This document shows positions 9,931 through 16,055 of a DNA stretch of 64,000 bases, one piece after another. This DNA comes from Stegostoma tigrinum (taxonomy: Eukaryota), in assembly GCF_030684315.1 (NCBI RefSeq), contig NC_081376.1, positions 20,937,018 to 21,001,017 on the forward strand, read 5' to 3'. The notes beneath the pieces were generated by a model. The model searched no databases. It worked only from the letters and a program-made list of their open reading frames with translations, and was not told where the DNA came from. The position numbers and the translations under genes are program-made. Position 1 is the stretch's first letter. Every line of letters begins with the position of its first letter.

Positions 9931-11499
9931 TCAAAGAGAAACACATATGTTGGGCTCCTCATTGTTGGTATTTATAGAGCCTCTACCCCCTGAAGGTTGA
10001 TTAATTATCCACTTCTTCTCACATGGTGCAGTGACTAGAAACCACGACACAGAATCTGTCAAAAGCCAACTGCCTCTGTTTCTGTCATTGTTAAAAAAAG
10101 AATCAAAGGAATAAAAGATGAAAGCAGGTTAACTTGATCAGCACAATTTTACAAAGTCATAAATAAGTACAATTTTAAAGTCAGAAGTTTTCAAAAGAGA
10201 CAAATATTGGATCATTTCAAAGACTATTTAAACAAGCAATGATACCTTGTTAAATCCACCTAAACATTTTAAAAATCTGATAAATTGAGTTTGAGAAAAC
10301 GTAACAAATCTACTTATGTCCAACAGGGTTTTGGAAGTTCCCTATTGGTATATTTGTCCTTATTAAAGATTCACAAAATGAGAGAACTCCCACAAAAGCC
10401 AACATTTTTCAAACAGAGTAATTTGTGAGTGGGCATTTCGATCTGCAGGGTGGCTGATGACTGATACCATGAAGCTTCTGGAGAACTGGAGGGTGGCCCC
10501 CTGTAACTTCTGGATTTACACACCGGAATGCTCATGTAAGTTGCCGGGCCTCTCCACCATGTCCGTACAGTTTGAAGGCTTGGTTGTCATTGCTTCAGTA
10601 AAATCGTGGCCAATAACTAATATCGTTGTCATGAGAGACATTGCTTTTAATTCCATTTGCTTCTGGGCAGGTAGATAGTGAAGTGAGTTGAAAAATGTTC
10701 CAGAACTGAAACCCAGGCCACTTTAACTCCAAAGTTGCATTCAAATTCCCATTGGTTGATTTTCCAGCAACTCTGGATGGAAAAGCAGTGGAAAATGACA
10801 TGATCCTGTTGTAAGGCCTAGGACCAAGGACAAGTGATCTTCTCTTCTTCCTATTTCTTCTGGTCTTCAAATTGAGAGGCAGATTGACTCCACTTTGATA
10901 CAAGGTCGACAGGTTTCTGATCCTCTATCTGGCGTGCTGGCCTGGGTTGTGCTGTGAACATAGATCTCACTTGATACAGAACAAGAGGCTTAAATGTTCC
11001 TGGTGAGGTCTTAAGGGGCCTGACTGGCCCTGATAGGCTTTCACTAGTCAAAACTTTAGGTCAAATTCCCTGCTGAAACTTCAGTGAAAATTATCATTGC
11101 ATCTCATGGGGACCTGAAATATATTTGTGAAATAGAACGATATTTGTTGCCTCGGTATCCTTGCCCAGTATAGAAGGTTGAAATGTCATACAGTGGAATC
11201 ATGACTGCTTCGGGTTTGAGAGTACCTCAGACAATTTTAACTGCCCATTCCTTCCAGATTCTGCTGGGCAGTTCAAATCATCCTTTAGATCTTTTTTGAT
11301 TTTTAGGAATGTCTCCACAACTTGGAATGGATTCAATACACCTGAAATAAGTCTCTGGCAATTCTACTGCAAAACATTCTTCCTGGCTCTGAACTATGGA
11401 GCAGGGCTACATAAGTCAAGGTGAGCAACTCTCACAGTTGGAAATATGCAGACATTGTAAACTGGGCCTGATTCATTGAAAGTGTATGATCTTTAACAT

Positions 11500-11860
11500 T
11501 CCTTCTTTCATGGGATGTGGTCATTCTGGTGAGGCCAGCATTTGTTGCTTATCCTTAACTGTCGTTTAATTAAGGAATTTGCGAGGATGTTTCAGAGAGC
11601 AGTTAGGAGTCAACCACATTATTGTGGATCTGGAGTCACATGCAAGCCAGGGACATAGGGGGACTTGCCAGTGACACAAGGTGGACTTGGGCAGAAATTA
11701 AAAAATCATATGGTTCTTTGCTTCGATCAAAGATAGTTTCATGGTCACCATTACTGAGATTCTTCAGATGTCAGATTTATTCATTCAGCCAACTATTTGT
11801 CAGAATTTGTGATCATGTCCCCAGAATATTATCTTGGGTCTAGTATTGCAACCACCATCA
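11500..11860 (-). mobile_element. SacSINE1/Deu-type SINE, degenerate
   Basis: Reverse complement of the same tail and core as 9646 and 26325 (gagtcaaccacattattgtggatctggagtcaca). Confidence 0.6.
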
Positions 11861-12012
11861 TCCCAACAGCTATTCATATATTTTACCGGGGGAAAGTCTG
11901 CTTGATGTGTCCAGTTAACAAGAGTTCTTGTTTGAAATGCCTAGCCAACATTAACCACAGCAAAATTAGCATCCTCGTATGTTGTGCTATAACCTTTCTT
12001 CTCCAATCTTAG

Positions 12013-12079
12013 ATTAGCCGCTTGACCTGGTTCACCCGTTTTGAAAGAAACAATTCTGTAGTAAAACAGCCTGATGAAG
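12013..12079 (+). CDS. SLC5A11: SLC5A11-like paralog A, 67-nt exon (start of TM13-TM14 loop)
   Basis: Pyrimidine tract and AG at 12011-12012. Reads ISRLTWFTRFERNNSVVKQPDE (SMIT2 VSHLTWFTR). Strong AAG/gtaagc donor at 12080, phase 1. Confidence 0.9.
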
Positions 12080-12677
12080 GTAAGCTACATGTCAAGGAAC
12101 TGCTAACATGAGCAAAATCACACTTTCAAGGAAGAAGTCCTTGACGATCATTGCAATGATACATGATATACTAGAGGCAGAACAAAAACCATACCCCTGA
12201 CATGAATGCAACACAGCTATAATTATGTACAAGTGTAGCAACTACCCAATGTATAGGGCAATTTGATGTGATCTAAGGTAAGCCTTTCTTTCTGATGTAA
12301 TGCTGCATCAACATGATAAGTTATGATTTAGTACCTTCCAGATGCAGGAAAGAGAATCATGTATGTTGTTTGGAAACTGTTAAAGAGTTCTGTGTCTCTT
12401 AGAGATGCACAACTCTCTCACTAGTCTGAGCAGTGGATAATGCAGAGCTTATGGTACCCCCCTGTCTTGGGAAACAATTGCATCAAGAAGGAATGTCCTT
12501 TCTGTGTAGAACATTCTCTATTGTGGCTGTTAAAAGCTGATTCATGCGTCAGTTCCACCTGCAGATGTATTGGACAACTGATGCTTACTCCTTCTGGCAG
12601 GCTCACTTTTCTGCCATCCGCTGGTTTCTTTTGTCCTTTGCTCTCTCTATGTTCTTCCTGACTGCTCATCTCCAGGC

Positions 12678-12777
12678 CTGAGACACTGCGAACGCACAGA
12701 CTGAGACACTGCGAACGCACAGACTGAGACACTGCGAACGCATAGACTGAGACGTTGCGAACACACAGGCTGAGACA
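12678..12777. repeat. 23-bp minisatellite, ~4.3 copies
   Basis: Unit ctgagacactgcgaacgcacaga at 12678, 12701, 12724, 12747 and partially at 12770. Confidence 0.95.
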
Positions 12778-13073
12778 TTTTGCCTTTGGTCATGGTGCAT
12801 AATGTTGCCAGGTTGAACAGTTTGCTGTCACTCTGCCTCCTGCAGGTGGTTAACTTCATTTGAATTAGCATAAGTGTGAATGTTAGAGTATATCATTATC
12901 ATTTGGGAACTTAGATTCTAAAGTAAAAGTAAATGAGATTTTGGTTTTAGTTCTGGGAAGGTGAAATTTTTTTATGCGCTCATGGTATCATTGCCATTTG
13001 TAGCTTGTCCCTAGTTAGCCTTGACCAGGTTACGAAACAAAAAACAAGAATGGCAGTTGCTGGGAAATCGTTG

Positions 13074-13170
13074 AACAAACAGAAATTGCTGGAAAAACTC
13101 AGCAGGTCTGGCAGCACCTGAGGAGAAAAAGCAGAGCTAATGCTTTGTGTCCAGTGAGCTTTCTTTCAGA
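13074..13170 (-). mobile_element. Penelope family C terminal-repeat fragment
   Basis: aaattgctggaaaaactcagcaggtctggcagca, shared with the end of the element at 16680-18900. Confidence 0.6.
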
Positions 13171-14439
13171 AGGTGCGCTTGAGAAGATGGTGGTGAACTG
13201 GCTTCTTGGACCACTGCAGTCCATGTGCTGTAGGTTGACCCACAATGCGTTACGGAGCAAATTTGGGGATTTTGACCCAGTTAAGTTCCATGACGGACCT
13301 TCACAGTAACCAAATGGCAAAAAATTTCAAAAAAAAGGGAATGGCCAAGCAAGGAGAGATAATTCAGCTCCCCACTTTTTCAACACCTCTTGGTCAGGCA
13401 GAATAAACAATTATTTTTCTTTTTAGCTGCAGTGAACATACTTCAAGTAAAACGTAGTACCAGTCAAAATTAAGGAGCCATTTACCCAGTTTTCATGAAT
13501 GAAATGAAGATGAATGCTATTACATAATAACCTAGAGAAAAATAATAAATTTGTGACGTAAGACACACACAATCGCAGGTGTAAAGTTTAAAAGGGGAGA
13601 GTGTACCAGGGACAGTAAGAGGACTTTTAATGTCCTCAGAGTGCTGGAGGTGTTAAATTTTAACCTGAGTCAACAGTTGTTTAATGGTTGCCTTGTATCC
13701 TTAGCAGTAGCAAAGTCTGAGGGGATTATTTAATTGTTCATAAATGGTTGGAGTAATCTTGTAGGGGTCTGAGTAATGTAGGCTTATGGCACAATTTGTG
13801 GCAGAATCAGACCCAAAGTCCAGTGAAGCTGATCATACTTCGGAAGCTTCTTGCTCTGTCTTTTATGATTTTCATAAGTAGCACAATTAGGTTTCCAGCT
13901 CAATAGTGGTGAGTTGACAATTGATCTCCTTGTTAAATGGCTTTTTGATAGCCCAACCCACCTCATTAATATTCAGCTTCCTTACTTACCAAACAAGATA
14001 GACATTGAGAAAATGCAGCATGGAAATCAGAGCAGATACCTGGTAAATTCAGCTCACCACTTCCTCTGCAGGATCTCCACACTGGACATCAAGCACCAAC
14101 ATCTCAGGCTACAGTATTTGGGCACTGGACACATACGCATCATGTCCACTGACATTGGCATCTGATAACGAGCCACCCTGTAAGAACCATCATGCTACAT
14201 CTCTGGCCAACTCACAAGAAACTTCTGCACTTCAATGCTGTATCTTGGGCTACTCTGGTAACTGTTATTGTAATGTAGCAGCAAGGACACACAGACTGGA
14301 CCAAGCTGCATCTCTGCATGCTTCATTCACAATCATAGTGCTTACTCATTCTGGGCCTACCTTGATGCTCACTGCATGTCTGACTTGCCTTGCCTTTTTG
14401 CACTTTTCCCCCTCAGCCAGAGATACCAATCTCACATTA

Positions 14440-14575
14440 CTAATGAACAAGGACCGCTGGATTCAAAATGTTAACTCGGATTTCTCTCCACAGACACTGC
14501 CAGACCTGCTGAGTTTCTCCAGCAATTTCCATTATTGTTTCAGGTTTCCAGCATCAAAAGTTCTTTGTTTTATGT
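14440..14575 (+). mobile_element. Penelope family C terminal-repeat fragment
   Basis: gttaactcggatttctctccacagacactgccagacctgctgagtttctccagcaattt. Confidence 0.6.
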
Positions 14576-15295
14576 TAGTTAACGAGCTGAGTTTGATAAG
14601 GTACCCTAATAGAGCCTGCTTGGCATTGCAGCAGAATTCCCTTCAAAAAACTTGACACAACTTAGGCTTTGCCAACAAAAAAACAAAATTCAGTCTGTGT
14701 TGTTTTTTGCTTTTTTCACTGAATGCTGTTTTTGACATAATGAGGAGAAATTAGAGAGAAAGAGATACTTAGGACTTTCAGTTACCAGTCAGTACTTCTT
14801 TCTGTCTGTTAAATGCTCTGCCAAACAGTTACTAAAATATGGTTCAGTTTTCTATTTCTGAGTCTGGCTCTTTTGTCATTTCAAGCTGGATATTTGCAGG
14901 CAGCCCTTTCATTTGCAATACATGCAACTTCTCACCCAAGTGTAAATTAACACAGGTGGTGTGAGTTTCTCAACACCTGACACAGTTCAACAGTTTGGAT
15001 GTCTTTAGCTGAAATGGTAATTTCATTTTAGATAATTTTATTTATTCTGCATTTGTGTTTATTCTGTGAACAACTAATTGTTGCAGCTAGTTTAGGTTAC
15101 TGTTTGTCTTTTTAAAACAATTTTAGTCTACAAAAGTTCTCAGGTATTAAAATCAGATGATGGAAGTTATAAACTGACAGTCAATATTTACCAATATCTT
15201 CACATTAAGGGAAGGGATTAGATGCAAGAAGAGACTACAAGTATCATCACATAACCAGCAGAATCCCAAAACAATCTATTGTATTTCTTCTCCAG

Positions 15296-15394
15296 CAGCT
15301 GCATCTGAAATAGATTGTACAATGAAACAGCCTACAGAGAGTAAGCAGCACCAAGAGGATATCAGCAATGCAAACAGCATCACCTTCTCAAAAG
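15296..15394 (+). CDS. SLC5A11: SLC5A11-like paralog A, loop exon (99 nt; alternative donor after 15340 gives 45 nt)
   Basis: tatttcttctccAG acceptor. Open phase 1-1 frame AAASEIDCTMKQPTESKQHQEDISNANSITFSK. Donors AGA/gtaagc (15341) and AAG/gtagac (15395). Loop sequence is not conserved, so support is splice signals, frame and similarity to neighbouring exons. Confidence 0.65.
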
Positions 15395-15486
15395 GTAGAC
15401 AATCCAGCAGGATTATTGATTTGGTGCACAATGCAACAGGATTGTAACTGAGACGTAATGCTGTCACCAATTCTGCTCTCTCCCAG

Positions 15487-15555
15487 ATCAACCAGACGAT
15501 GGTAAGGTTTATTTAGAGGAAGTCAGTAACATGAGCAATGCCAGCTTCTCAGTGG
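15487..15555 (+). CDS. SLC5A11: SLC5A11-like paralog A, loop exon (69 nt; alternative donor after 15501 gives a 15-nt microexon)
   Basis: ttctgctctctcccAG acceptor. Open phase 1-1 frame DQPDDGKVYLEEVSNMSNASFSV. Donors ATG/gtaagg (15502) and TGG/gtaagt (15556). Confidence 0.65.
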
Positions 15556-15843
15556 GTAAGTAACTTTATGTTTACATCTCTATAATAGCACACAGGGCAC
15601 CAGGATTGTAATTTCAACCCAAGACAAGGATAAATAATTGCAGTGGGGATCTTGTGCCTAAATCCCATGCTATTTTTGACATTTCATAAGTTAAAATCAA
15701 GGCAAGTAGTCTCATCAAGCAAATCAGGAAGGAAGAAACTGTTTCTTCAGTACTGACCCATTCCTAAATGATTTGATTTTATACTCAACGTGCTCTGGGA
15801 TATTCTGGATCATAACTTTTGACTCCTTCCCTCTCTCCCACAG

Positions 15844-16055
15844 ATGAATCAGTGAATAAACGTTCAAAGCTGATCTCCTTCCTGTTGTGGTTCTGTGGGA
15901 TGGATAATAAGAAAGAAACAGTTAATGCTCCTACAAGTGAAGTTTTGGACACTGCTGACTCGCTCAGTGAAGACCGTCACATGCGCAATTTTGTTAATGC
16001 TAATTTAATCATCTGTTTGAGTGCTGCTGTCTTCCTCTATGGTTTTTTCTCTTAA
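15844..16055 (+). CDS. SLC5A11: SLC5A11-like paralog A, terminal coding exon (TM14)
   Basis: ccttccctctctcccacAG acceptor, phase 1. Reads DESVNKRSKLISFLLWFCGMDNKK...SLSEDRHMRNFVNANLIICLSAAVFLYGFFS then TAA, matching the SMIT2 C-terminus (SK..K.ILWLCG...NLIFCVSCAIFIWGYFA). Confidence 0.95.

Follow-up and report, generated by a model that had tools for sequence, protein, structure and literature searches.

The three-exon loop of zebra shark SLC5A11 is probably a product of two old tandem duplications of one exon end

The loop that precedes the last transmembrane helix of zebra shark SLC5A11 is spread over three homologous modules, which most probably are copies of one exon end, produced by two old tandem duplications in the ancestor of sharks and rays, with one fixed splice donor per exon (12080, 15395 and 15556). 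The source of the new introns can still be found in the DNA: positions 12080–12133, at the start of the first intron, are homologous to exons 2 and 3, and the start of the second intron (15395–15486) is homologous to the start of the intron at 15556.

Gene and exon layout

The analysed window is a 64,000-nt stretch of the Stegostoma tigrinum genome (GCF_030684315.1, NC_081376.1, 20,937,018–21,001,017, forward strand), and all positions are window coordinates. The gene belongs to the SLC5A11/SMIT2-like family by its PF00474 (SSF) domain and RefSeq names, and the top outside matches in a similarity search, made without a tree, were teleost and mammalian SMIT2. Its predicted product is a sodium-coupled, SMIT2-like myo-inositol transporter. 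A search of the Stegostoma genome with loop exon 1 returned this locus only. A second SMIT2-like gene, paralog B, starts at ~25037 and ends beyond the window (25037–64000 plus L005–L007). Paralog B stands in tandem with SLC5A11, an adjacency also seen in bamboo shark from the locus tags chiPu_0006059 and 0006060; it is diverged and has a single loop exon.

RefSeq model P0003 maps to 2303–2518, 12013–12079, 15296–15394, 15487–15555 and 15844–16055; the loop exons themselves are thus already annotated. All features lie on the plus strand. Loop exon 1 (12013–12079; 67 nt, phase 0 to 1) ends at the donor AAG/GTAAGC at 12080, which is used in all evidence, comprising RefSeq models P0001–P0003 and joints in transcript runs X1 and X2. 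Loop exon 2 (15296–15394; 99 nt, or 96 nt from the NAGNAG acceptor at 15299; phase 1-1) contains module copy 2 (15328–15394) and ends at the donor AAG/GTAGAC at 15395. It is separated by a 92-nt intron (15395–15486) from loop exon 3, which is itself module copy 3 (15487–15555; 69 nt, phase 1-1) and ends at the donor TGG/GTAAGT at 15556. The last loop intron (15556–15843; 288 nt) occupies a phase-1 position common to paralog B and the outgroups, and the last coding exon (15844–16055) encodes the end of the loop and the last transmembrane helix. Two latent in-frame donors lie within these exons, AGA/GTAAGC at 15341–15346 in exon 2 and ATG/GTAAGG at 15502–15507 in exon 3, the use of which would leave a 15-nt microexon; no use of either was seen.

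Homology of the three modules

The first-pass annotation had described phase-1 GTAAG donors at 12080, 15341 and 15502, with a second phase-1 GT 54 nt after each of the latter two. All of these sites are present and in phase 1, the second members being 15395 (GTAGA) and 15556 (GTAAG). Since the equal spacing of the two pairs is explained by duplication, it counts as one fact rather than two. The claim that the frame is kept in every combination also holds, as exon 12013–12079 joined to short, long or skipped copies 2 and 3, with both NAGNAG acceptors, reaches the normal stop in 15 of 15 cases.

Tandem exon duplication, proposed in the same annotation, is borne out by three homologous modules of ~22 codons that resemble one another above chance, although copy 1 is not exonic beyond 12079 and the description of three exon regions therefore stands in part only. 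Copies 1 and 3 agree in 34 of 54 columns, a score reached by 0 of 3000 background stretches from the window, and copies 2 and 3 agree in 31 of 54 (1/3000). For copies 1 and 2 the agreement is 30 of 55 columns (4/3000 background stretches, or 77/3000 with GTAAG left out), and copy 1 resembles exon 2 in the sequence before the module as well (12/3000). Homology between copies 2 and 3 continues ~53 nt into the introns that follow them (32 of 56 columns; 6/1000 background), and the duplicated unit therefore carried the donor. Both of these introns share an 11-mer (15437–15447 and 15601–15611). The acceptors of copies 1 and 2 have 11 nt in common, the second longest match among 171 acceptor pairs, which is suggestive, but only that, of a copy 2 acceptor inherited from the exon 1 acceptor by duplication.

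The remnant of copy 1 in the intron

Copy 1 (12080–12133) appears to have been turned into intron and to have decayed. It carries a 1-nt deletion near 12101, a TGA at 12109–12111 and no GT at +53/+54, so that its distal donor is lost. It had earlier been presented as an exon region, with dots in its printed peptide that hide the frameshift and the stop. Contigs of two DNA-like runs, X4 and X5, match 11700–12650 with 0 differences and 0 gaps, although they come from one sample that may be the source of the assembly; an assembly error behind the frameshift was ruled out by this identity, and the break in copy 1 is therefore real.

A module HMM, built from 29 modules of other species with the Stegostoma rows left out, was searched against 5814 window pieces. 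It recovered copy 1 at E 1.9e-5 when read through with X at the break, and the intronic part alone at E 0.079. Compared with copies 2 and 3, the purely intronic 31 nt of copy 1 ranked 5th of 63,969 window positions, a ranking that includes two self hits.

Further downstream, a second AAG/GTAAGC occurs at 12275–12283 (donor 12278). This 9-mer is identical to the 12080 site and phase-compatible, and its use would include the TGA at 12109, a possible poison extension. A fourth module at 12278 was considered and discarded as not significant, since 156–1515 of 2000 background stretches score as high. The gained intron also contains a 23-nt tandem repeat of 4.3 copies at 12678–12777.

Splice forms in transcripts and gene models

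Splice evidence comprises gene models and the assembled contigs of two runs (X1 and X2) from one relative, whose pieces are ~93–98% alike; rare forms drop out of such contigs. One 624-nt contig of run X2 joins 12079 to 15296, 15394 to 15487 and 15555 to 15844, and run X1 also joins 12079 to 15296. Removal of the gained introns is thus seen as GT..AG joints in the relative's contigs, and likewise in the RefSeq models. The three RefSeq zebra shark models (isoforms X1–X3) use 12080, 15395 and 15556 only, and their loops differ only by the alanine of the NAGNAG acceptor (15293–15298), by which isoforms X1 and X2 are told apart; the extra Ala is found in a Pristiophorus model too. Joints from 15341 or 15502 were absent from the relative's X1 and X2 contigs, in which rare forms are lost. 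A search for protein fragments with a shortened loop gave P0004 only, out of 71 candidates.

These data do not bear out the earlier proposal of a loop tuned by splicing in 18-aa steps, as one fixed donor per exon is used in every transcript and model seen (the relative's contigs and the gene models). A single fixed donor per exon had been named in advance as the outcome that would speak against tuning, and it is what the relative's assembled contigs and the gene models, as opposed to multi-tissue reads, display. Of the 18-aa steps themselves, the 54-nt separation of the donor pairs is correct, but the steps given by exon skipping are 23 and 32–33 aa. A tunable 18-aa ladder is accordingly unsupported and very unlikely.

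In the relative's runs, intron sequence precedes exon 12013 (window ~11345–11420 and 11703–12012). In run X2 a segment ending at 11420 (donor AAG/GTGAGC) is spliced onto exon 12013; in run X1 the preceding intron sequence is retained, and from exon 12013 both runs continue by splicing into exon 2. In zebra shark the segment contains an in-frame TAA. It may represent a cryptic exon, or an internal start may produce a short 3′ transcript here.

Conservation and strength of the internal donors

A phase-1 GT requires an NGT codon, and hence Gly, Ser, Cys or Arg at the split position. Among 15 species, copy 2 has Asp at this position in 11 and Ser in the other four, all carpet sharks. In copy 3 it is Gly in 8 of 16 species and Asp, Val, Phe or Ile in 8 of 16, with Gly-Lys in one of the 16. 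An internal GT codon is therefore impossible in 11/15 species for copy 2 and 8/16 for copy 3, and is not conserved across the clade that bears the exons, although a conserved GT could lie behind the copy 3 Gly of eight species, were that Gly encoded by GGT. Parsimony, applied to the protein sequences without a tree, suggests that Asp codons likely gave rise to the GT independently in copy 2 and in copy 3, and that the pair was not inherited as one design. Both sites, 15341 and 15502, are probably no more than latent by-products, as one or two changes turn the usual Asp-Lys codons into GTAAG.

Donor strength was gauged by energy of pairing with the U1 motif only. Each internal donor pairs less well than its own distal partner, at −5.3 kcal/mol for 15341 vs −6.5 for 15395, and −8.5 kcal/mol for 15502 vs −11.9 for 15556. 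The 15 donors inferred to be real in the two paralogs span about −4 to −14, a range that includes both latent donors, and by this measure 15502 outranks 15395.

Loop variation across sharks and rays

From 49 elasmobranch proteins retrieved, 44 with a complete loop, representing 17 species, were compared; the other five were excluded as truncated or alternatively ended. As the counts rest on gene models, they say nothing about expression levels and do not prove that a form is absent. Of the 44 complete loops, 36 contain exon 2 together with exon 3, and a loop shorter by 18 aa occurs in 0 of the 44 (gene models of 17 shark and ray species). The differences found within a species are of other sizes: −1 in Stegostoma; −23 in the Pristis X2 and Rhinoraja X2 models, two rays in which exon 3 is skipped whole; −30 in the Hypanus X3 model, where exon 2 is skipped; and −17 in Mobula hypostoma (P0047/P0048), where an unrelated 17-aa exon replaces exon 2. 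Exon 3 is missing from the Carcharodon model, which retains exon 2; the S. canicula model (P0009) lacks exon 2 and carries two near-identical exon-3 modules (21 of 23 residues identical).

The loops of S. canicula and M. hypostoma look like ongoing exon turnover. The 17-aa exon of M. hypostoma presumably resembles a mobile element, and a mobile-element origin was dropped when a search of 94 kb gave no match.

Loop identity to zebra shark is 25–74%, vs 85–95% in the core. Between fixed anchors the loop measures 91–94 aa in most sharks vs 58–80 aa in five named bony-vertebrate proteins.

Outgroups and proposed history

The single-exon loop that had been given for tetrapods, and which human SLC5A11 presumably shares, agrees with all outgroups compared. 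In paralog B a single exon of 139 nt, with a phase-1 donor at its end, encodes the loop, and bamboo shark model P0088 is the same by length. In five read-through ORFs (P0056, P0064, P0069, P0076 and P0090; teleost-like and bird-like SLC5A11) the loop is likewise one exon from its start up to a single intron-like insert. The gained introns thus appear to be absent in outgroups, as judged indirectly from paralog B and the read-through ORFs.

The module HMM found no match in paralog B or the outgroup loops (scores below 0 bits or unlisted), so the module is identified as an ancestral exon end by its position, its phase and the homology of its flanks. A module-like stretch in the last intron of paralog B was set aside at E 0.38; a corresponding exon is absent from the bamboo shark model of paralog B. 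Loop exon 1 ends at the same aligned residue in 17 of 17 species, and the split therefore predates the shark–ray divergence; no chimaera ortholog was found, and the duplication date is bounded only at its young end.

It is proposed that the ancestral loop exon (phase 0 to 1) was duplicated together with its donor and flanking intron. Two copies of a phase 0-1 exon cannot both be read in one frame; copy 2 was therefore likely re-phased, by trimming to an acceptor in phase 1, and splicing of copy 1 would have moved to a GGT-AAG donor in its interior. The last 18 codons and the old donor of copy 1 would thereby have become intron and then decayed through the frameshift, the stop and the loss of the GT. 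A second duplication, at an offset of 161 nt, would have made exon 3 and the 92-nt intron. The net outcome would be two new introns and a loop of 91–94 aa, a change likely tolerated because conservation of this flexible loop is low. The symmetry of exons 2 and 3 allows them to be skipped whole, as in some ray models.

Alternative readings

It is quite unlikely that carpet sharks use and regulate 15341 and 15502 as donors, so that the loop would lose 18 or 36 aa and the 15-nt microexon would be among the products. Such use would be in frame and without stops, yet it is absent from 44 of 44 complete loops, from all three zebra shark models and from one full contig. While 15502 pairs with U1 better than 98.5% of GTs in the window, both distal partners pair better still and sit nearer the next acceptor, and internal exons of 45 and 15 nt are poorly recognised in vertebrates. 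In favour of such use, the relative's contig has no difference listed at 15341–15345, and Gly-Lys (GTAAG) occurs in copies 2 and 3 together in zebra shark only; the copy 2 donor, however, is not conserved beyond carpet sharks. A more elaborate form is held to be very improbable, namely that carpet sharks re-armed the latent donor in two duplicated exons and that, with exon skipping, graded loops (5-, 15-, 23- and 33-aa pieces) set SMIT2 trafficking or activity by tissue or salinity. If true, the re-armed donors would be the intron gain repeating itself, at the same latent donor that once split the ancestral exon.

Regulated whole-exon skipping in the loop is possible and can coexist with the two-duplication account. 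It is somewhat unlikely that loop length is tuned in this way through exon 2 (30–33 aa) and exon 3 (23 aa), both kept for trafficking or regulation. The Pristis, Rhinoraja and Hypanus skips and the Carcharodon and S. canicula arrangements speak for this reading, as does the in-frame retention of the two exons across most of the 17 species; however, these skips are gene models, silent on levels or tissues, a skip form is absent among the zebra shark models and the relative's X2 contig, and fast divergence together with the unrelated exon of M. hypostoma fits relaxed constraint. Selection for the copy 1 remnant as an RNA element, either a splicing enhancer or a poison extension to donor 12278 that feeds nonsense-mediated decay, is highly improbable. 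The remnant matches copy 3 (59% identical) as closely as the two live exons match one another (53%), and the site at 12278 has the phase and the intervening TGA that a poison extension would need, but no joint from 12277 was seen in the relative's contigs. The plain introns after copies 2 and 3 have kept 57% identity too, so that slow decay suffices; the remnant, being no better kept than they are, fits slow neutral decay. Epaulette shark has a mutation rate of 7e-10 per base per generation (PMC10587355), and a rate this low makes a long-lived fossil plausible.

Comparison with known systems

The two-duplication account best fits imprecise intron gain by tandem duplication, a kind already described (PMC3443670), with the source, to judge from the DNA, still visible. 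Its closest counterpart is the potato RdRp intron (PMC4974935), nearly identical as an event, in which duplication activated a cryptic exonic GTAAG. In both cases the duplication spans an exon–intron boundary, a cryptic GTAAG in the former exon of the upstream copy serves as donor, the new intron begins with former exon and the coding sequence grows. Unlike that intron, the shark case is vertebrate, old rather than recent and has a second duplication round; its unit clearly carried the donor and downstream intron, its fossil is frameshifted and ~60% alike, and its new intron measures 3.2 kb. The precise (Rogers) model of AGGT duplication was rejected, because the copy-2 GT follows acceptor 15296 by 45 nt and residues are added to the protein.

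Tandem exon duplication is reported for 7–17% of metazoan genes, generally with mutually exclusive splicing (PMC3342872). Shark exons 2 and 3 likewise are homologous neighbours of equal phase. Unlike such exons, they are included together, in the relative's X2 contig and in 36/44 models with a complete loop, and so form a protein repeat with optional skipping in place of mutually exclusive splicing.

Intron gain is extremely rare in vertebrates, according to PMC3257199. Gains with a visible source are few, and here two introns appear to have a source still readable in the DNA. One step, the conversion of an exon end to intron through an internal GTAAG, would survive as a fossil, which the slow evolution of sharks probably made possible. 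The value of the locus is as a clean teaching and test case of a known mechanism rather than as a new one. No published description of the shark SLC5A11 loop was found in the literature outside subscription papers.

The loop in the transporter

For transporter biology, the shark and ray proteins offer naturally occurring length variants of an SLC5 loop about which little is understood. It corresponds to the last cytoplasmic loop of SGLT1 and SGLT2 (TM12-13, structure numbering), with the same last intron phase, and it is invisible in SGLT2 cryo-EM maps (PMC10803289) and was reported to be partly re-entrant in SGLT1 (PMC4854415). Unlike these transporters, the shark and ray SLC5A11 paralog builds the loop from three exons and an acidic, Asn/Ser-rich repeat. 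The likeliest role is that of a tolerant linker that accepted in-frame additions. An AlphaFold model of the protein, with a mean pLDDT of 35 overall, was given no weight. SLC5A11, without distinction of paralog, is among the high values in a stingray kidney expression table (PMC9396271).

Shark loops carry up to four N-x-S/T sequons (window 15489–15555 and orthologs) and those of four rays carry none; they would matter only if the loop is re-entrant. Sequons exceed the shuffled expectation in 5 of 17 elasmobranch loops (p under 0.05), the rows being related by descent.
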